DNA of 64,000 bases, from contig JAPYRX010000001.1 of assembly GCA_029936815.1 (NCBI GenBank), positions 4,256 to 68,255 on the forward strand, written 5' to 3'. This DNA is from Dehalococcoidia bacterium (GTDB lineage Bacteria; Chloroflexota; Dehalococcoidia; Lucifugimonadales; GCA-002694895). The position numbers and the translations under genes were made by a program. The notes under the pieces were generated by a model that worked only from the letters and a program-made list of their open reading frames with translations, made no database searches and had not been told where the DNA came from. This document shows, one piece after another, positions 1-35,411 of this stretch (the stretch's first letter is position 1; each line of letters opens with the position of its first letter).

Positions 1-1278
1 AATATCATTTGCATACATTTCCATAGGGTCGCTAAGTTTTTCACCTAATTTAAATGCAGTAGATGGGGAAGTTGGAGTAACTAAAATATCAACTTTAGTA
101 AATATATCATTTAGTTCAGATTTTATAATTTGTCTAGCTTGCTCAGCTTTACCATAGTATTCATCATAGTATCCCGAAGATAAAGAATAAGTTCCTAGCA
201 TGATTCTTCTTTTAACTTCTAATCCAAATCCATTAGATCTAGATTTTTCTATTCTTTCCCACATATTATCAACTTCGTTTTCAGAATAACCATATTTTAC
301 CCCATCATATCTAGACAAATTAGAAGAAGCCTCCGATGGAGCTAGAATATAATAAACAGAAAGAGCATAATCTGTGTGAGGTAATGAAACCTCTTCTATC
401 ACTGCGCCTTGATCTGATAAAAAAGACACAAAATCCATAACGCTATCTTTAACTTTTTCATCCAAATATTCTGAAAAATATTCTTTTGGTAATCCTACTT
501 TTAACCCATTCAATATATTTGTTTCGTCATCAATTATTTCCGAACTCAATCCCCTAGATGTTGAATCGTACTCATCTTTACCAGAAATAATATCTAAAAT
601 TAATTTAGAATCTTCTGCATTTCTAGTAAATGGTCCTATCTGATCTAATGAACTTCCAAATGCTATCAGCCCATATCGACTAACTGCCCCATAGGATGGT
701 TTTAGCCCTGTGATCCCACACAAAGATGCTGGTTGTCGAACACTTCCACCTGTATCAGATCCCAAAGAGAAAACACTAAATCCTGCACTTACAGCTGCTG
801 CAGGGCCTCCGCTACTTCCACCTGGAACACGGCTTAAATCCCACGGATTTTTAGTTGCCCCAAAAGCCGAATTTTCTGTTGATGAACCCATAGCAAATTC
901 ATCTAGATTTCCTTTCCCAATCAATATAGCCCCATGTTCATTTAAATTCTTTACTACAGTAGCGTCATAATTGGAAGAGAAACCATCTAAGATCTTAGAT
1001 CCTGCAGTTGTTTCGAAGTGCTTGGTTGATATATTATCTTTCACCATATAAGGAATTCCAGTTATAATATTAGATTCTTTTCTGTGAATGAGCTTATCAG
1101 CTTGTATTGCTTTATCTATAGCATAATCTTTATCCATAGAAATAAATGAATGAATTTGAGATTCGTATTTATCTATTCTGTCAAAAAAATATGTAACTAA
1201 TTCAACTGAACTAATTGTTTTATCAGATAATAATAGACTTAACTCTTTTATACCTTTGTTATGCAAACTATTTAACAT
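1..1278 (-). CDS. gatA: Glu/Asp-tRNA amidotransferase subunit A (GatA); 3' end runs off the window
   Basis: Absent from the ORF track because it is open to the window edge. Reverse translation from the ATG at 1278-1276 gives MLNSLHNKGIKELS.... The amidase signature DLSRVPGGSSGGPAAAVSAG reads on the minus strand at about 781-840. The start abuts the gatC stop (1279-1281). Confidence 0.9.
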   Translation of the reverse strand, partial: MLNSLHNKGIKELSLLLSDKTISSVELVTYFFDRIDKYESQIHSFISMDKDYAIDKAIQADKLIHRKESNIITGIPYMVKDNISTKHFETTAGSKILDGFSSNYDATVVKNLNEHGAILIGKGNLDEFAMGSSTENSAFGATKNPWDLSRVPGGSSGGPAAAVSAGFSVFSLGSDTGGSVRQPASLCGITGLKPSYGAVSRYGLIAFGSSLDQIGPFTRNAEDSKLILDIISGKDEYDSTSRGLSSEIIDDETNILNGLKVGLPKEYFSEYLDEKVKDSVMDFVSFLSDQGAVIEEVSLPHTDYALSVYYILAPSEASSNLSRYDGVKYGYSENEVDNMWERIEKSRSNGFGLEVKRRIMLGTYSLSSGYYDEYYGKAEQARQIIKSELNDIFTKVDILVTPTSPSTAFKLGEKLSDPMEMYANDI

Positions 1279-1575
1279 TTATTCTTCTCCCAAAACAAGC
1301 TCTATAAACAATTCATCTCCATTATGATTTGGGGCATTCTTCAATATATTTTCTTTATCCCAAGATGGTTCAGATTGATCTTCTCTTGTCTGATTATTTT
1401 CTTTTAAACTATCATCAAATTCATTGAAATTATCTAAATTAATGCTGTTTAATTTACTAAAACTACTCAAAATATCAGTCAAATCTACAGATAATTTCTT
1501 GATTTCTTGATCATTCAAATTTAATTTCACTAATCCTGACAGCTTTCCAATTAAATTTTTATCAATGTTTTCCAA
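1279..1575 (-). CDS. gatC: Glu/Asp-tRNA amidotransferase subunit C (GatC)
   Basis: 98 aa acidic helical protein immediately upstream of and abutting gatA. It shows the GatC-like pattern LSGLVKLNLNDQEIKKLSVDLTDILSSFSKLNSI. Confidence 0.85.
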   Translation of the reverse strand: MENIDKNLIGKLSGLVKLNLNDQEIKKLSVDLTDILSSFSKLNSINLDNFNEFDDSLKENNQTREDQSEPSWDKENILKNAPNHNGDELFIELVLGEE

Positions 1576-27057: not shown

Positions 27058-27792
27058 ATGGAAAATATCACTAGCGAAATACAAAATATTAAATCCGGAA
27101 TGGTAGTAACAGCTCATCCGGACGATGCAGAATACGGATGTTCTGGCACAGTAGCAAAGCTTTCTAATTCAGGAGCAGAAATGGTTTATGTTTTATGCAC
27201 AGATGGAAGTAAAGGTACTGAAGATAAAAACTTAAGTCCTTCTGAACTTGCTGGAATCAGAAAAAACGAACAATTAAACGCAGGCAAAGTATTAGGGTTA
27301 AAAGATGTAGCTTTTCTAGGATATCCAGATGCATACTTAACACCTTCTCTCGATGTAAGAAAAGATATAGCAAGACAAATAAGAATTCATAAACCTGAAA
27401 TTTTAATATGCCAGTACCCATTAAGAAATCTAGATGGCACATGGGGGTTTGGGCATCCTGATCATATAGCAGCAGGAGAAGCCGCAATGGCAGCAGTCTT
27501 CCCTACAGCAAGAGATCACAAAACATTCCCTGAATTATATGACGAAGAAAAACTTGAGCCCCATAAAGTTGAAGAGGTATGGATCATGGGACATCCTGAT
27601 CCAGATATTATTATAGATATCACTGATACTATGGATCAATCTATCGATGCTCTTTATAGCCATGTATCTCAGATGGGAGGACGGACAAAAGCTGAAGTAA
27701 AAGAAAGAATAGGGGAATGGAGAAAAAACAGAGGTAGAGAAGAAGGCATGACATATGCCGACACATATAAAAGAATTTCCCTTAGAAGATAA
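27058..27792 (+). CDS. PIG-L/LmbE-family N-acetylglucosaminyl deacetylase
   Basis: VVTAHPDDAEYGCSGT and GHPDH zinc-binding motifs, 244 aa. Confidence 0.85.
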   Translation: MENITSEIQNIKSGMVVTAHPDDAEYGCSGTVAKLSNSGAEMVYVLCTDGSKGTEDKNLSPSELAGIRKNEQLNAGKVLGLKDVAFLGYPDAYLTPSLDVRKDIARQIRIHKPEILICQYPLRNLDGTWGFGHPDHIAAGEAAMAAVFPTARDHKTFPELYDEEKLEPHKVEEVWIMGHPDPDIIIDITDTMDQSIDALYSHVSQMGGRTKAEVKERIGEWRKNRGREEGMTYADTYKRISLRR

Positions 27793-27856
27793 TTATTTGC
27801 AAATAACTAAAATCTAAACTAGTCTATTACTAAACAAATCATAAGGACAGGTTAAT

Positions 27857-28744
27857 ATGGAATTTGAAGGCGTATATCCAGCAATAATCACACCTCTAAA
27901 TACTGAGAATAAATTCAAGGAAAAAGAATTCAGAAAAGTTGTTGAATTTAATATAAATTCTGGAGCTAATGGATTTTGGGTTTCAGGTGGTACAGGTGAA
28001 AGTATTTATATTTCTCCAAATGAAATAAAAAATGTTATCAAATCTGCTGTTGATCAAACCCAAGACAGAGCCAAAATCATTGCACATGTCGGTTCTATTA
28101 CAACAAAAGAATCTCAAATATTAGCAGAATCAGCTGCCAATTCTGGAGCAAATGCAATATGTGCTGTCCCTCCATTTTTTTACCCTCCCAATTTGCAGAC
28201 TATAATAAAACATTACAAAGCAATATCTGAAGCATCTGGCAATCTACCTTTTTTTGTCTATAATTTACCTCAATCTACCGGCACAGAAATAACTCCATTA
28301 ATGATGAGTGAAATCAAATCTGAAATCCCTAATACAGCAGGATTAAAGCATTCTGGTCCAAAATTCACTGATATGACAGGCTTTATAAATTTAAATCTTT
28401 CTTGTTTTATTGGTAATGCAAATCTTATGTTACCAGCATTAACATTGGGTGCGTCAGGATGTATAGACGGACCTTTAAATGCAGCACCTGAATTATGGGC
28501 AAATATCTGGAATGCATTTAAAAAAAATAATTTACTCGAAGCTATGGAAGCTCAAGAAAAAGCTATAAAATTTTCTAACGTAATAAGAGATTTTGACATG
28601 CACTCTTCTATTAAAGAAATAATCTCTTATAGATTGAAAATTGATTGTGGAAGCCCAGTTTTACCCCTACCTCAATTAACCAAAAGTGAAAAATCAGAAT
28701 TAATTTCTGAAGTAAAACAAATGAATATTATTGATATAAGTTAA
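27857..28744 (+). CDS. DapA/NanA-family class I aldolase (dihydrodipicolinate synthase family)
   Basis: GGTGESIYIS, FVYNLP (Tyr) and GLKHSG (Schiff-base Lys) motifs. Substrate is not assignable by eye. Confidence 0.75.
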   Translation: MEFEGVYPAIITPLNTENKFKEKEFRKVVEFNINSGANGFWVSGGTGESIYISPNEIKNVIKSAVDQTQDRAKIIAHVGSITTKESQILAESAANSGANAICAVPPFFYPPNLQTIIKHYKAISEASGNLPFFVYNLPQSTGTEITPLMMSEIKSEIPNTAGLKHSGPKFTDMTGFINLNLSCFIGNANLMLPALTLGASGCIDGPLNAAPELWANIWNAFKKNNLLEAMEAQEKAIKFSNVIRDFDMHSSIKEIISYRLKIDCGSPVLPLPQLTKSEKSELISEVKQMNIIDIS

Positions 28745-28755
28745 GAGAGCTAATT

Positions 28756-29532
28756 TTGTACGAAATAAATTTGAATACTAAAACAGCTTTAATTTTTGGA
28801 TTCTCGAACCATAGAAGTATAGCATGGCATACTGCAAATAAATTATATCTTGCAGGTGCAACAATAATTTTTTCTGTGTATGGAGAAAAAATGAAAAAAA
28901 ATCTTTTGAAAACTACAGCAGATTGGAATTATACTCCTGAAATCATCGAGTGCGATGTTTCTAGCGATGATGACATACATTCATTGTTCACAAAAATTGA
29001 AAAATCAAATCAAAAAATTGATATGTTAGTTCACAGTATCGCTATGGCTGATAAAAACGAATTAGGCGGAGACTACCTGTCTTTGAGTAGAGAAGGATTC
29101 AAACTAGCGATGGATATCAGTGCTTATTCATTTGTTGCTTTGTGCAATGGTGCAAGGAATATAATGAACAATGATTCAAGTATAATTACTTATACTTTTC
29201 AAGCATCAGAAAAAGTATTTCCTGGATACAATGTAATGGGAACTGCTAAAGCTGCTCTAGAGCATGAAGTTCGCCAAATAGCATTTACATTAGGAGAATC
29301 TAATATAAGAGTTAATGCAATATCTGCAGGTCCTTTAGATACAATATCGTCTAGAGTTATCCAAGGCTATAAAAATATGAAAAGTGCTGCATCAGAAAGA
29401 TCTCCGCTGAAGCGAAATATTACATTGGAAGAAGTTGCAAATTCAGCTTTATTTTTACTTTCAGATATGAGTAGTGGAATCACAGGAGAAACATTGCATG
29501 TTGATTCAGGATATAACATAATGGGAATCTGA
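28756..29532 (+). CDS. fabI: Enoyl-[acyl-carrier-protein] reductase (NADH) FabI
   Basis: SIAW, VHSIA, YNVMGTAKAALE (Y-x6-K) and AISAGP motifs. The start codon is TTG. Confidence 0.85.
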   Translation: MYEINLNTKTALIFGFSNHRSIAWHTANKLYLAGATIIFSVYGEKMKKNLLKTTADWNYTPEIIECDVSSDDDIHSLFTKIEKSNQKIDMLVHSIAMADKNELGGDYLSLSREGFKLAMDISAYSFVALCNGARNIMNNDSSIITYTFQASEKVFPGYNVMGTAKAALEHEVRQIAFTLGESNIRVNAISAGPLDTISSRVIQGYKNMKSAASERSPLKRNITLEEVANSALFLLSDMSSGITGETLHVDSGYNIMGI

Positions 29533-29583
29533 TTTATTAATTGCTATACTAAAAATATCAAATTAAAGGTCATAATTAGCAAC

Positions 29584-30093
29584 ATGGACAAATGGGTAAA
29601 AATAATAATAGATTCTTTAAAAGAACATAATATTTCTATTATAAGTTATGTTCCAGACATCAGTATTGATAAAGTCACAAAAGAAATTGAATCAGACCCC
29701 TACTTCAAAGTAATTCCTGCAAGTAGAGAAGAAGAATGTATTGGAATAGCATCTGGATCTTATGTCTCAGGAGTAAATTCAGCGATTTTTATGCAATCTA
29801 GTGGATTTGGTAATTGTATTAATGCATTAACAAGCTTAAATCTTCCTGCACGAATCCCAATTCCCATATTTATTAACCTAAGAGGAGAAATAGGGGAATT
29901 TAATATAGCGCAAGTAACGATGGGAAGATCTACCAAACCTATTTTAAATGTTTTAAACATTCCGCATGTCACTCTTAATAATTATATAAACTTAGAAAAA
30001 AAAGTGTCCGGGAATATTACGCTTTGTTATGCTTCTAAAATTCCTTTGGCTATATGTATATCTCCCCTTTTACATGGAGGTAAAATTGCTTAG
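29584..30093 (+). CDS. comD: TPP-dependent sulfopyruvate/phosphonopyruvate decarboxylase family, alpha subunit (ComD-like)
   Basis: The REEECIGIASGSY..G...AIFMQSSGFGNCINALTSL....IPIPIFINLRGEIGEFNIAQVTMGRST pattern matches ComD as I recall it. Confidence 0.7.
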   Translation: MDKWVKIIIDSLKEHNISIISYVPDISIDKVTKEIESDPYFKVIPASREEECIGIASGSYVSGVNSAIFMQSSGFGNCINALTSLNLPARIPIPIFINLRGEIGEFNIAQVTMGRSTKPILNVLNIPHVTLNNYINLEKKVSGNITLCYASKIPLAICISPLLHGGKIA

Positions 30094-30679
30094 ATACGAT
30101 TTGATGAAATATATACTTCAAAATAGTGAAAATTCTCCAATAATCTCAAACTTAGGGCCAACTTCTGATGAATTATGGCATTTAACTAAAGAATTAGAAA
30201 TACATCCAAGAGAACGAAATTTTTATACATACGGATCAATGGGATTATGTTCATCAATTGCACTAGGTATATCTATAAATACTACAGAAAAAGTTATTTC
30301 AATTGATGGCGATGGCTCTTTGTTGATGAATTTAGGAACGCTCTCAACTATAGGTAGAATTTCACCGGAAAACCTAATTATAGTAGTTTGTGATAATGAA
30401 ATGTGGGCCCAAACTGGTTACCAGCCAACAGCAACGGCATTTAATACTGATTTAGAAAAAGTTGCTAAATCTTGTGGATTTAAAAACACTTTTAAATGTA
30501 CTAATATAAATGAGTTCAAAAATACTTTCAGTAAATCTTTAAATCTAAATGGCCCAACTATGATTGTTGCAAAAACAAAAGAAACTGGTGAATTCCCTGA
30601 AGTCACACCTGTAGAACCCGAATTCACAGTATATAGATTTAGAAACTCTATGATGAATAATATTGAGGCAAAACTATGA
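30074..30679 (+). CDS. comE: TPP-dependent sulfopyruvate/phosphonopyruvate decarboxylase family, beta subunit (ComE-like)
   Basis: GSMGLCSSIALG and the TPP-binding motif IDGDGSLLMNLGTLSTIG. The start is uncertain: ATG 30074 is in frame, overlaps comD and keeps the LRYDLMKYI segment; TTG 30086 and ATG 30104 are alternatives. Confidence 0.7.
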   Translation: MEVKLLRYDLMKYILQNSENSPIISNLGPTSDELWHLTKELEIHPRERNFYTYGSMGLCSSIALGISINTTEKVISIDGDGSLLMNLGTLSTIGRISPENLIIVVCDNEMWAQTGYQPTATAFNTDLEKVAKSCGFKNTFKCTNINEFKNTFSKSLNLNGPTMIVAKTKETGEFPEVTPVEPEFTVYRFRNSMMNNIEAKL

Positions 30680-31605
30680 ATTCTTCAGTAGCTTTTTACA
30701 AAGGAGATTTTGTTCCTTATGAAAATGCAAAATTACACATTACAACACATGCCTTACATTACGGAACATCTGTATTTGAAGGAATTCGTGGTAATTGGAA
30801 TGAAAAAGAAAATACTCTATTTGTTTTTAGAATGAAAGAACATTTTGATAGACTTTTAGAGGGATGTAAAATGCTTATGATGAATATTCCTTACAATTCT
30901 GATCAATTATGCAATATTACTTTAGAGTTATTAGAGAAAAATAAATTTAAAGAAGATGTTTACATTCGTCCGTTAGCTTATAAAAGTGCGGAAGTTGTTG
31001 CAAACTTGAAATTACAAGACTTGGAAAGTGACTTTGCTCTGGTTGCGGTGCCATTTGGACTATATATTGATTCAACTAGAGCAATTAATTGTTGTACTTC
31101 TTCGTGGAGAAGAATAGAAGATACCATGATCCCTACAAGGTCTAAAATAGGAGGCCATTATGTAAATAGCATCCTAGCAAAAACAGAAGCTACTTTATCT
31201 GGGTTTGATGAAGCAATATTCCTAACAGAAAGCGGATACGTTTCAGAAGGGGCAGGAGAAAATTTATTTCTAATAAAAGATAAAACTATTTTTATCCCTC
31301 CAGTATCTGATAATAATTTATCTGGGATAACTAGAGATTCAGTCATTAAGTTAATAAAAAATGAATTAAATTTAGATATAGTAGAAAGACAAATAAGAAG
31401 ATCGGAAATATACCTTGCCGACGAATTATTTTTAACTGGCACAGCTGCTCATGTAACTGCAGTAGGGTCTTTGGATAGTAGGCCCATAGGATCAGGAAAA
31501 GTTGGCCCGATAACAAAATCAATTCAAATTTTATATTTCGATTGTGTAACTGGTGATTTTAAAAAATATATTAATTGGTGTACTCCAACAAATAAGAACT
31601 TATGA
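30676..31605 (+). CDS. Class IV (branched-chain/D-amino-acid type) aminotransferase
   Basis: LHYGTSVFEGIR, the EGAGENLF motif and GITRDSVI. The ATG overlaps the comE-like stop (ATGA). Confidence 0.85.
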   Translation: MNSSVAFYKGDFVPYENAKLHITTHALHYGTSVFEGIRGNWNEKENTLFVFRMKEHFDRLLEGCKMLMMNIPYNSDQLCNITLELLEKNKFKEDVYIRPLAYKSAEVVANLKLQDLESDFALVAVPFGLYIDSTRAINCCTSSWRRIEDTMIPTRSKIGGHYVNSILAKTEATLSGFDEAIFLTESGYVSEGAGENLFLIKDKTIFIPPVSDNNLSGITRDSVIKLIKNELNLDIVERQIRRSEIYLADELFLTGTAAHVTAVGSLDSRPIGSGKVGPITKSIQILYFDCVTGDFKKYINWCTPTNKNL

Positions 31606-31778
31606 TAAAAAAATTATTAGAATTAGTTAAATATAAAACTAAATATATTATTCCAAAAGATGAATATAACTCATTAGAAACTAGGATTGGAGGAATAATT
31701 TCAGATTCTGAAGAATTAAATAATATAAAATTTCATAATATGGAATTCCCTCCCATAAAAAATCATGAAAAACAATAA
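31602..31778 (+). CDS. Unannotated 58-aa small protein, candidate GatC/AtzG-like partner of the downstream amidase
   Basis: Hand translation: MIKKLLELVKYKTKYIIPKDEYNSLETRIGGIISDSEELNNIKFHNMEFPPIKNHEKQ*. Its ATG shares ATGA with the upstream stop, and its 3' end overlaps the amidase ATG by 14 nt. Confidence 0.55.
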   Translation: MIKKLLELVKYKTKYIIPKDEYNSLETRIGGIISDSEELNNIKFHNMEFPPIKNHEKQ

Positions 31779-33171
31779 TTTCTCATATACCTCAATATCT
31801 GATCTTTCTAAATTGATACAAAACAAAGATGTATCTCCTGTGGAATTAACTAATTTTTTCATTGAAAAATTAGTTAATGAAGGCCCGTCATACAATGCTG
31901 TTGCACATATTAATGAGAAATCTGCAATTGAACAGGCAAAAAACGCAGAGAAATCAATTTTAAACAATGAATATTTAGGGCCTCTACATGGTATTCCTTT
32001 TGCAGCCAAAGATTTATTAGCGACAAAAGATGGAAGCCCTACTTCATGGGGGGCAAAACCTTTGATTAAACAAAAATTTGATATTGAATCGACTATAATA
32101 ACTAATCTTAAAAATTCTGGCGCTATTTTATCTGCAAAGACTTCAATGGTAGAATTTGCAGGAGGCATGGGATATCAACAACCTGACGCTAGTGCATTTG
32201 GCCCAGGAATAAATCCTTGGAACAAATCTTATTGGAGTGGCGGATCTTCAAGCGGTTCAGGATCAGCTGTATCAGCTGGGTTAATTCCTTTTGCAATTGG
32301 TTCTGAAACATGGGGGTCAATTCTAACTCCTGCAGCAAATTGCGGCGTCACTGGATATAGACCGACATTTGGAATTGTAAGCAGGTTTGGATCAATGGTT
32401 TTATCATGGACTTTAGATAAAATCGGCCCATTAGCACTATCTGCTGAAGATACAAATATTATTGCCCAATCAATTATTGGAAAAGATGATAATGACCCAT
32501 ATTCAGTAAAAACAATTTATGATACTAATAAAAAACTTCCTCCAAATTTGAAAATCGGAATTCCTAAAGGTATAGACTACAATATACAAAATGAAGTCAA
32601 AGACAATTTCCGCATATCTCTTGCAAAATTAAGTGAGAAATTTGAAATTATTGAAATAGAATTACCCGACATTCCAACTAGTGCAGCAACAAGAACAATT
32701 TTATCAGCTGAAGTTAGTTCTGCATTTGAAGAAATTTTTGATAAAGGGTTACAGACTAAATTAAATGCAAAAGAAACACATTATTCTGTTTTAAGTACAA
32801 ACACTGTATTAGCAAAAGATTACATAAAATCTTTGAGAATACAAAATATGCTAAACGAAAAAATGAACAAATTATTTTCTGAAGTAGATATTATTATAAG
32901 CCCCGTAAAGCCAAAAACCGCATCTCAAATAGATGAAAATTTCAGATGGGCTACTAGAAAAGAATTTAATGAAGAACATCCGATTTCTCTTATTGGCGCT
33001 ATTGGAAATTTAATTGGCCTACCTGCTATCAGCATACCTAATGGATTTGACAAAAATGAGCTACCTACAAGTATTCATTTTATTGCAAACAACCATCAAG
33101 ATGATCTTGTAATCAAAATTGCTGAATATATTCAAGCCACAACAGATTGGCATAATAATCATCCAAATTAA
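31765..33171 (+). CDS. Amidase-signature family hydrolase (GatA/AtzE-like paralogue)
   Basis: GGSSSGSGSAVSAG signature, GSETWGSIL and 468 aa length. It is distinct from the true gatA at 1..1278. Confidence 0.85.
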   Translation: MKNNNFSYTSISDLSKLIQNKDVSPVELTNFFIEKLVNEGPSYNAVAHINEKSAIEQAKNAEKSILNNEYLGPLHGIPFAAKDLLATKDGSPTSWGAKPLIKQKFDIESTIITNLKNSGAILSAKTSMVEFAGGMGYQQPDASAFGPGINPWNKSYWSGGSSSGSGSAVSAGLIPFAIGSETWGSILTPAANCGVTGYRPTFGIVSRFGSMVLSWTLDKIGPLALSAEDTNIIAQSIIGKDDNDPYSVKTIYDTNKKLPPNLKIGIPKGIDYNIQNEVKDNFRISLAKLSEKFEIIEIELPDIPTSAATRTILSAEVSSAFEEIFDKGLQTKLNAKETHYSVLSTNTVLAKDYIKSLRIQNMLNEKMNKLFSEVDIIISPVKPKTASQIDENFRWATRKEFNEEHPISLIGAIGNLIGLPAISIPNGFDKNELPTSIHFIANNHQDDLVIKIAEYIQATTDWHNNHPN

Positions 33172-34268
33172 AAAGTACTTATTTTATCGATATCCATTTC
33201 AATTGATATATTATCAAACCATTCAACTACTTCTTTATGTAATGGTATTCCATTTTTAATTCTATCAGCCTCATTCTCAAATTCCATAATCCCCGGATAT
33301 ATAACTCTTTCAGATTCAGAAATTGAAGGAGTATCAAGTAATTTTGATAACATCAAATCCATATTATCAATAAATTGAGTATATTCAGTAAAAGAGTCTA
33401 TATTAAATGCTGCAAAAAAATGGCATAGATTTCCTTTTGAATCTATCATGTTTGGCACATTTCCAGATAAAATTGTACAAAGAATTTCTACAAATAACGA
33501 GAGCCCATAACCCTTATGAGATCCTTGATCTCTATTGCCTCCGAGTGGTAATAGAGGTGGAATATGAATAAAATCTTCAGAAGTTTCAATTCCAACAGAT
33601 TCCATAATTGGATTACCTTTATTATCAGCTATTGAACCTGAACTTAATTTTGTACCATTTCGAGCAACAAGCCTAACTTTATTACCTGCAATTGAAGACA
33701 TAGCTGCATCAAACAAGAAATAAGGATATGTATTTGATGGCGCTGCCAAAGAAATAGGATTGGTTCCGGTTCTTGTTTCTGCAGCAAAAGTCGGTAATAC
33801 CAAAGTCCCACCTGCTGTTAAACAAATCCCAACCATCCTATTATCTGCGGCTATCATAGCATGGTGACCAACCGCTCCTATATGCCCACTATTAAATAAT
33901 GTTACAACACCAATACCTGTCTTTTTAGCTTTTCCAATCGCTAGTTTCATAGCATCTGGTCCTTGTAAAATACCAAGTCCATTATCACCATCAATATTTA
34001 AATTGGAAATGTTTTCCTTTACAATTTTTATTTTAGGTTTAGGGTTAAGCTTTCCTGATATATAATCTTTAACATAAATTCTAAGCATATTTGAAACGCC
34101 ATGTGTGTCTACACCTCTTAAATCAGTAGATACTAATACATCCGATCCAATTTCAGCTTGATAATCAGGAACGCCACATTTAATAAAAATTTGCCGAACT
34201 ACGTGTCTCAAAGAAGTAGAATCTACTCTTATTTCGTCAGATTTCGGTGTTTTAAATTGATCTAACAT
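33168..34268 (-). CDS. Ldh_2-family (malate/L-lactate/sulfolactate dehydrogenase type) oxidoreductase, ComC-like
   Basis: GVDTHGV, NSGHIGAVGHHA and GSHKGYGLSL motifs typical of the Ldh_2 family. Confidence 0.75.
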   Translation of the reverse strand: MLDQFKTPKSDEIRVDSTSLRHVVRQIFIKCGVPDYQAEIGSDVLVSTDLRGVDTHGVSNMLRIYVKDYISGKLNPKPKIKIVKENISNLNIDGDNGLGILQGPDAMKLAIGKAKKTGIGVVTLFNSGHIGAVGHHAMIAADNRMVGICLTAGGTLVLPTFAAETRTGTNPISLAAPSNTYPYFLFDAAMSSIAGNKVRLVARNGTKLSSGSIADNKGNPIMESVGIETSEDFIHIPPLLPLGGNRDQGSHKGYGLSLFVEILCTILSGNVPNMIDSKGNLCHFFAAFNIDSFTEYTQFIDNMDLMLSKLLDTPSISESERVIYPGIMEFENEADRIKNGIPLHKEVVEWFDNISIEMDIDKISTF

Positions 34269-34289
34269 AAAATAATTTTATATTTTGAC

Positions 34290-35411
34290 TTAATTCAAAG
34301 ACTCTCTAATTTTTTTTATCACAATGTCAACTTCAACATCGTCAACATTTAATGGGTCAAATATTATTTCATCTGGATGTATTAAATTACTTATAAATAT
34401 TGGAGAATCTCCTTCACTCAATCTTTGAATTACATCTTTCGCAGTAGGCCCTTGCCATTCTTCATTAAAAAATATTGAAGCATTAGGTGTTAAATAATCA
34501 TCTTTATCATGTTTTAATTCAACATCTAATCCAGGGGTTTCACTAAAAGCATCTACAACTTTTTGACTACGATTTCTAAAATGTGCCATTTCAGCTTCTT
34601 CATCTTCATTAACAAAATTATGCAATGCAGTTAATATACCGACTATTTCCTCTTTTGCTACTTTTGCAGACCTTCCCAAGAATTGGTGAGGAGAAGCATT
34701 CGCGAATGCTGCATTAATTAAATCTTTTTTACCTGATAATAATCCAGTCCCCTGAGGTCCTCGAATTCCTTTACCTCCACTATGTATAACTAAATCTGCA
34801 CCCATTTTGTGATATTTAGACAAATTCTCTCTTGGGGGTAACATGGAAGCAGCATCTACAATGACAGGAACTCCTCTTGAATGAGCAATTTCTGTGACCT
34901 TGTCCAATGGAAGTGCAAGTTTTGATGTTCCTGGTGAAAAAAGATATGCTACTGCCGCAGTTTTATCTGAAAAAGCAGCTTCTAGTTGCCATTCATGACA
35001 TCTTTTACCATCTCCTATTTCAACAAACTTAGCTCCGGCAGCTCTGTAACATTGATCATAAGGAAATCTTTGTGATCTTTGAATAATGATTTCATTTTTC
35101 ATTCCTTCTGTGTCAGGAAGTTTTGCCATCTTAGCAGGATCATCTCCAGCTATCACTGCGCAAGCTTGTAATAATAAACCGCCAGCCGATCCACTTGTTA
35201 CCAATCCTGATTCAGATCCAGTTAACTCTCCAATCATTTTGCCTGCAGATTTATTTAATTCATCCATATCAAGCATAACTGTGGAAGCTTCAATCATTAT
35301 TTCTGTAACTTCTGATCTTAATTTAGATCCCCCAAATTTCGTGGTAGAACCCGCTGCGCTAATTCCTTTTTTTACGCCTAATTTTTCGTATAATTCATCT
35401 AATTTACTCAT
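34290..35411 (-). CDS. SelA/DgaE-like fold-type I PLP-dependent enzyme
   Basis: VTSGSAGGLLL, DAASMLPP and the lysine context HSGGKGIRGPQGTGLL resemble the L-seryl-tRNA selenium transferase-like family. Confidence 0.6.
   Translation of the reverse strand: MSKLDELYEKLGVKKGISAAGSTTKFGGSKLRSEVTEIMIEASTVMLDMDELNKSAGKMIGELTGSESGLVTSGSAGGLLLQACAVIAGDDPAKMAKLPDTEGMKNEIIIQRSQRFPYDQCYRAAGAKFVEIGDGKRCHEWQLEAAFSDKTAAVAYLFSPGTSKLALPLDKVTEIAHSRGVPVIVDAASMLPPRENLSKYHKMGADLVIHSGGKGIRGPQGTGLLSGKKDLINAAFANASPHQFLGRSAKVAKEEIVGILTALHNFVNEDEEAEMAHFRNRSQKVVDAFSETPGLDVELKHDKDDYLTPNASIFFNEEWQGPTAKDVIQRLSEGDSPIFISNLIHPDEIIFDPLNVDDVEVDIVIKKIRESLN

Follow-up and report, generated by a model that had tools for sequence, protein, structure and literature searches.

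Within the window, i.e. the whole 64 000-nucleotide stretch of Dehalococcoidia DNA that was analysed, a small open reading frame of 58 codons (hereafter the sORF; translation MIKKLLELVKYKTKYIIPKDEYNSLETRIGGIISDSEELNNIKFHNMEFPPIKNHEKQ) lies between the gene for a class-IV aminotransferase and that for an amidase-signature enzyme (Table 1). The sORF is joined to both of its neighbours: the reading frame of the aminotransferase ends at 31605, its TGA sharing an ATGA with the ATG of the sORF, and the far end of the sORF overlaps the amidase gene, the ATG of which is at 31765. If the sORF is ignored, a gap of 159 nt (31606..31764) is left between the two larger genes. An initial annotation, made from the sequence alone, had reported the reading frame with a translation by hand, the ATGA junction upstream, the overlap with the amidase ATG and the gap that is thereby filled, and all of these proved exact when read against the sequence and the ORF table. 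It had also called the ORF unannotated, which holds for the ORF track it worked from but not for public data, where the exact 58-aa protein is a called gene on 26 contigs (NCBI, JGI, ENA, Logan and Tara). Relatives of the protein are publicly labelled 'hypothetical protein' and come from Dehalococcoidia, SAR202 or Chloroflexi MAGs.

Table 1. Features of the sORF-amidase locus and comparator features. Positions are those of the window, except in the last row, where they are given as genome:contig:positions.
Feature	Position	Strand	Basis or remarks
gatA, cut by window end	1..1278	-	Adjoins gatC
Canonical gatC, 98 aa; comparator outside the module	1279..1575	-	Pfam GatC 42.4 bits, over cut-off; first row of alignment A4
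Class-IV (IlvE-type) aminotransferase	30676..31605	+	NF005146, 372 bits
ATGA start/stop overlap, aminotransferase stop and sORF start	31602..31605	+	Direct sequence reading and ORF table
sORF, 58-aa small protein	31602..31778	+	ORF table and translation; predicted helix 2-13, helix 19-41 and extended tail with invariant PP
14-nt overlap, sORF end and amidase start (translational coupling)	31765..31778	+	Sequence and ORF table
468-aa amidase-signature enzyme, presumed catalytic partner	31765..33171	+	PF01425, 288 bits
Sub-threshold AtzG-like/GatC matches upstream of other amidases	G036:C17:170666-170797, G059:C104:25333-25473, G015:C2:122828-122968, G027:C1:2785756-2785893, G055:C2:918352-918492, G039:C41:3959-4036, G060:C100:9316-9420, G019:C5:214892-215002		

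In the wider neighbourhood (27058..35411) are genes encoding a PIG-L deacetylase, a DHDPS/NanA-like lyase, a FabI-like SDR and ComD/ComE-like sulfopyruvate-decarboxylase subunits, overlapping one another; the IlvE-type aminotransferase gene comes next. Past the amidase lie convergent genes for Ldh_2 (ComC-like) and for a DgaE/SelA-like PLP enzyme. Only the series IlvE-sORF-amidase-Ldh_2 is kept within the genus. The gatC-gatA pair to which the initial annotation had likened the gene order (1..1575) is indeed present, on the minus strand and with its gatA truncated at the edge of the window.

Several signals bear on whether the sORF is a coding gene. The local G+C content of 32% corresponds to 0.079 stops per codon, at which a given frame would stay open over 58 codons with a probability of about 0.009. 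The G+C content of the sORF declines from the first to the third codon position (0.31, 0.19 and 0.10), as it does in both flanking genes. No Shine-Dalgarno site was evident ahead of the sORF on inspection of the window sequence itself; GGAGG stands 6-8 nt ahead of the start in three of five GC-richer relatives (L009, L011 and L012). The dN/dS ratio, a check proposed by the initial annotation, was 0.13-0.18 in close pairs. Contigs from seawater metatranscriptomes, 95-99% identical to the window, cross both the aminotransferase/sORF and the sORF/amidase junctions, such libraries being able to contain DNA, and the two variants that they carry inside the sORF (31649 T>C and 31727 A>C) are synonymous third-position changes. 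The sORF is a genuine gene under purifying selection.

The enzyme encoded downstream scored 260 bits against the gatA model TIGR00132 (cut-off 481), and 216 and 201 bits against the AtzE models NF006631 and TIGR02715 (cut-offs 461 and 426 respectively). Its best PDB matches were GatA of Thermotoga (181 bits) and AtzE (6c62_A, 119 bits). Judged by these bit scores the amidase is GatA-like and closest to GatA, yet neither GatA nor AtzE. The catalytic Lys, cis-Ser and nucleophile Ser motifs of the amidase are held by KDL, GGSSSG and GSETWGS, and the Lys of the first and the Ser residues of the other two are invariant in 18 orthologues. The JGI label of the amidase cluster, 'aspartyl-tRNA(Asn)/glutamyl-tRNA(Gln) amidotransferase subunit A', is very probably wrong for this gene, because a canonical gatCA pair exists elsewhere in the window.

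The orthologous amidase was searched in 60 related genomes and was found in five genomes of the same genus (72-74% identity) and at about 16 loci in other families of the order (42-50%). A homologous ORF of 58-75 aa abuts it in 20 of the 21 loci, which come from the genus itself and, within the same Dehalococcoidia order, from about 15 further families. The initial annotation had suggested looking for just such a conserved ORF ahead of orthologous amidases and had allowed for its being broken by stops or frameshifts in relatives; in all five genus genomes that hold the region it is an intact ORF of 58-59 aa directly upstream of the amidase, the start of which it overlaps by 8 nt, and the encoded proteins are 41-46% identical to that of the window. 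Of the 16 more distant loci, most of them GC-rich, 15 have an ORF of 62-75 aa in the corresponding position. The proteins there share 13-25% identity with the window protein, and the pattern L-F-x-x-V-x-x-R-Y-G-x-R-L ... A-L-R-x-V-x-L-x-N-x-D-E-P-x-S-x-F-x-P-Y-R is common to both. Pro-Pro and Leu positions are invariant. The version found in the window's genus is the most divergent and the shortest, and is without the F-x-P-Y tail motif of other members.

Of the 20 related loci that are not fused, 19 have a tight junction between sORF and amidase, at the closest a 14-nt overlap and at the widest a 5-nt gap; the remaining one has a 61-nt gap. The gene upstream of the pair varies by family (IlvE, MgtE, acyl-CoA ligase, a PAP2 protein and others), the IlvE-type aminotransferase standing there in the window's genus only (L002-L006) and unrelated genes in the other families. 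Since the upstream neighbours vary between families, the sORF travels with the amidase. Co-occurrence was counted over 61 genomes of the window's order using a family profile of 110 members: the amidase clade was present in 23 genomes and the sORF family in 23, with both present in 22. Both exceptions are fragmented assemblies, and in one of them (G005) the end of a contig cuts the amidase. Another genome (G013) has two copies of the amidase, each with its own sORF. The sORF branch occurs mainly within a single order of marine Dehalococcoidia; a phylum-wide scan found the family in only 5 of 301 Chloroflexota genomes, compared with 23 of 61 in the window's order, which rules out a family general across Chloroflexota.

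Two genomes showed unusual arrangements. In G014 an intact amidase orthologue (L016, G014:C13) has no adjoining sORF, and a well-conserved sORF copy was detected on a separate contig (G014:C17, L067 2150..3057) beside the 135-aa fragment that is all that remains of a decayed amidase paralogue; this sORF copy may act in trans. At a locus of a second genome (L022, G015:C2:127564-129170) the sORF is split between two frames that overlap, and the amidase that follows matches residues 86-467 only; either both genes seem to be in joint decay, or there are assembly errors at this position.

In two organisms the sORF and the amidase are fused in frame, namely in protein P0122 (L008 1195..2907) and in P0123, an 82%-identical protein from another assembly. 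The two parts are joined by a Pro-, Ala- and Gly-rich linker of about 35 residues, which was predicted to be disordered in the P0122 fold (pLDDT about 32-35). The N-terminal domain of that fold reached a pLDDT of 57-73, with the tail and linker below 35 and no confident docking, the alignment over this domain consisting of two sequences. These two natural fusions support a physical partnership between the sORF protein and the amidase, and together with the strict co-occurrence they lend indirect support to an obligate heteromer. MAFFT (alignments A5 and A6) repeatedly put the tails of free sORF proteins into the amidase part of P0122, aligning the tail motif D-E-P-x-S-x-F-x-P-Y-R to an amidase-internal N-D-P-S-T-T-S-R-P-F-R-Y (residues ~340-352); this match may be due to chance, or may be a mimicry of interest.

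The initial annotation had proposed a GatC/AtzG-like small subunit, an interpretation that is supported: at the level of the family, Pfam, hhalign and Foldseek point to a remote similarity, while the window protein (P0001) itself lies below both Pfam cut-offs and is no strict member of Pfam GatC or AtzG-like. P0001 had no match in Pfam at E <= 10 and none that was significant in NCBIfam, and its genus relatives likewise had none. At 90% identity the family to which it belongs falls into 215 clusters, every one of them unnamed or labelled 'hypothetical' and without a Pfam domain, and at 50% identity (E <= 1e-3) into 954 clusters with a stable length of 65-75 aa. When 110 representatives were scanned singly, the Pfam families most often matched were GatC (18 representatives, best E 6.7e-4) and AtzG-like PF13318 (10 representatives, best E 1.6e-4), all of these matches being below the curated cut-offs (23 bits for GatC PF02686 and 24 bits for PF13318). 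One member of a 14-sequence sORF alignment gave a weak match to the NCBIfam model HpxX.

Matches that all stay under threshold are what might be expected if the small protein did partner or assist the amidase but were no homologue of GatC or AtzG, i.e. an independent helical hairpin whose likeness to them is convergent or compositional. The searches against PDB sequences favour such a reading as well: HMMER profiles built from 6, 14 and 110 sORF members retrieved no GatC or AtzG chain, and their best matches were de novo designed helical miniproteins. Against it, the two models that recur at the top among the 110 members are independent and curated, and in whole-genome scans with both of them the sub-threshold matches fell exactly on the sORFs of L008, L012, L013 and L014 (GatC 12-16 bits; AtzG-like 14.5-16.5 bits, the latter in L013 and L014).

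Profile-profile comparison likewise speaks against an independent origin. Aligned by hhalign with a 17-member GatC alignment (A4), the sORF profile gave P = 4.1e-4 with 32 members and 9.5e-5 with 110 members, so that the profile similarity to GatC/AtzG whose absence the initial annotation had named as counting against its idea is in fact found. The register is the expected one, with sORF residues 5-46 on residues 8-49 of the genome's own GatC, and this is the same central stretch that had been picked out by eye as following the GatC pattern. The score of 27.1 compares with 9.4±1.9 (maximum 16.2) for 200 column-shuffled GatC alignments, none of which reached it (0/200, about 9 SD), in a control that is lenient in that column shuffling also removes helical periodicity; the reversed GatC alignment scored 6.6.

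The AF2 model of the sORF protein, built with the family alignment, is confidently helical (mean pLDDT 79.9), with helices at residues 2-13 and 19-41 followed by an extended tail. Among 350 542 PDB chains searched with Foldseek, the four best for this model were all GatC (2f2a_C, 3h0l_C, 2df4_C and 4wj3_C). Their E-values of 2.3-6.7 are insignificant, and two-helix hairpins are common, which leaves some room for convergence; that all four are GatC, and that the enzyme it would partner is homologous to GatA, tell the other way. Taken together, we consider an unrelated hairpin improbable. The converging weak signals from sequence profiles and the structural model show a kinship of the sORF family with GatC and AtzG that is real but remote, and we would class the family as a branch of its own within the GatC/AtzG superfamily, one that no curated model covers.

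It is far less probable that the translated sORF is no more than a leader (uORF) or coupling device controlling amidase expression, with a peptide that has no function of its own. The sORF is small, overlaps both of its neighbours and has no strong Shine-Dalgarno site of its own in the window, all of which would suit a leader. What a leader would not account for is that the amino-acid sequence, beyond the reading frame, is kept even among the most distant members, with its invariant Pro-Pro and Leu, and that dN/dS is well below 1; on this sequence-level conservation and the dN/dS ratio the leader-peptide reading was rejected. The many clusters of stable length, the in-frame fusions with the amidase and the confident helical fold of the model also stand against it.

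That the small protein is merely co-transcribed and has a role that does not involve the amidase polypeptide (a LysW-like amino-group carrier, a regulator or an antitoxin) is just as improbable: many members do end acidic (REEE, RKED, KINHE), but the C-terminal residue varies (E, D, G, A, S, Q or P) and the fusions have no free C-terminus of the small protein, on which grounds a LysW-like carrier was rejected, the family co-occurs strictly with one amidase clade while the upstream neighbours change, and Pfam and NCBIfam scans gave no match to carrier, regulator or toxin-antitoxin families.

The reading we prefer, with a probability of about 0.8, is that the sORF encodes a non-catalytic protein of the GatC/AtzG superfamily which is translationally coupled with the amidase and probably binds it as a stabilising 'belt' subunit. 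Its binding, its stoichiometry and its role in stability are what we infer by analogy with GatC-GatA and AtzG-AtzE. Through translational coupling the small protein would be made together with the amidase; following the same two precedents, its N-terminal helix-loop-helix would pack on the enzyme and its Pro-containing tail would run along the enzyme surface, and without it the amidase would probably have lower solubility or stability. In GatCAB it is the C-terminal half of GatC that extends to GatB. Since the sORF protein is without this half, no GatB-type partner is expected, and the pair would be a stand-alone hydrolytic amidase, with no second transamidosome.

At least eight further amidase paralogues, 30-36% identical to the window amidase, have sub-threshold matches to the AtzG-like or GatC Pfam models directly ahead of them (Table 1, last row). 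Because of these, small partner ORFs seem to be common for amidase-signature enzymes in the window's order. It is quite possible, though we would put it a little short of an even chance, that GatC-derived belt subunits are ancestral to, and general in, a large GatA-like branch of the amidase-signature enzymes. If so, many 'amidase' or 'GatA' genes in marine Dehalococcoidia/SAR202 and elsewhere would belong to enzymes that need both subunits, and expressing the one gene by itself would not succeed. For the window, the gene at 31765..33171 is proposed to encode a stand-alone catabolic amidase with its own mini-subunit, and the 58-aa gene should be co-expressed with it in substrate discovery. While two-part amidases are known already, this helper family is without a database model; large as it is, it is missed by current Pfam and NCBIfam, and a curated model would correct many annotations of marine Chloroflexota, which are abundant.

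Compared with GatC (PDB 2F2A, 2DF4, 3H0L and 4WJ3), the sORF protein has the same predicted helix-loop-helix followed by an extended Pro-containing segment, and its gene lies, like gatC, directly upstream of a GatA-type amidase gene. At 58 aa it is shorter than the GatC of the genome itself (98 aa), and it is without the conserved C-terminal half (R-x-D ... N-A-P in alignment A4), ending at about GatC residue 55-60. Unlike the partner of GatC in GatCAB, the amidase falls far below the GatA equivalog cut-off, so that no role in tRNA transamidation is expected, and a separate canonical gatC-gatA pair is present.

The second known system is AtzG-AtzE, the 1-carboxybiuret hydrolase of Pseudomonas sp. 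ADP (PDB 6C62/6C6G). The Pfam family AtzG-like PF13318 takes in HpxX as well, and an atzG-atzE-atzH cluster, with the DUF3225 gene downstream, is common in Proteobacteria. AtzG is the obligate partner of AtzE, which is insoluble without it, and the pair is derived from GatCA (PMC6219798). The pair described here differs from AtzG-AtzE in that its amidase is outside the AtzE family (less than half of the NF006631 cut-off) and nearer to GatA, and in that its hosts are marine Dehalococcoidia and not Proteobacteria. The small protein also has a tail motif of its own, (D/E)-E-P-x-S-x-F-x-P-Y-R, which reads E-F-P-P in the window's genus. No DUF3225 (atzH), atzD or atzF gene was found near the amidase among the ten neighbours scanned, the downstream gene being the convergent Ldh_2 dehydrogenase. 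As in AtzG-AtzE, a protein of about 60-70 aa, here predicted to be non-catalytic, is encoded just upstream of an amidase-signature gene and coupled to it, an arrangement that the initial annotation had recognized and that is seen both in the window and in the orthologous loci. As with AtzG, it is only the N-terminal, GatA-binding part of GatC that the small protein of the window matches. With no new mechanism involved, the idea of a 'vestigial transamidosome' would gain a lineage outside Proteobacteria, with an amidase other than AtzE.
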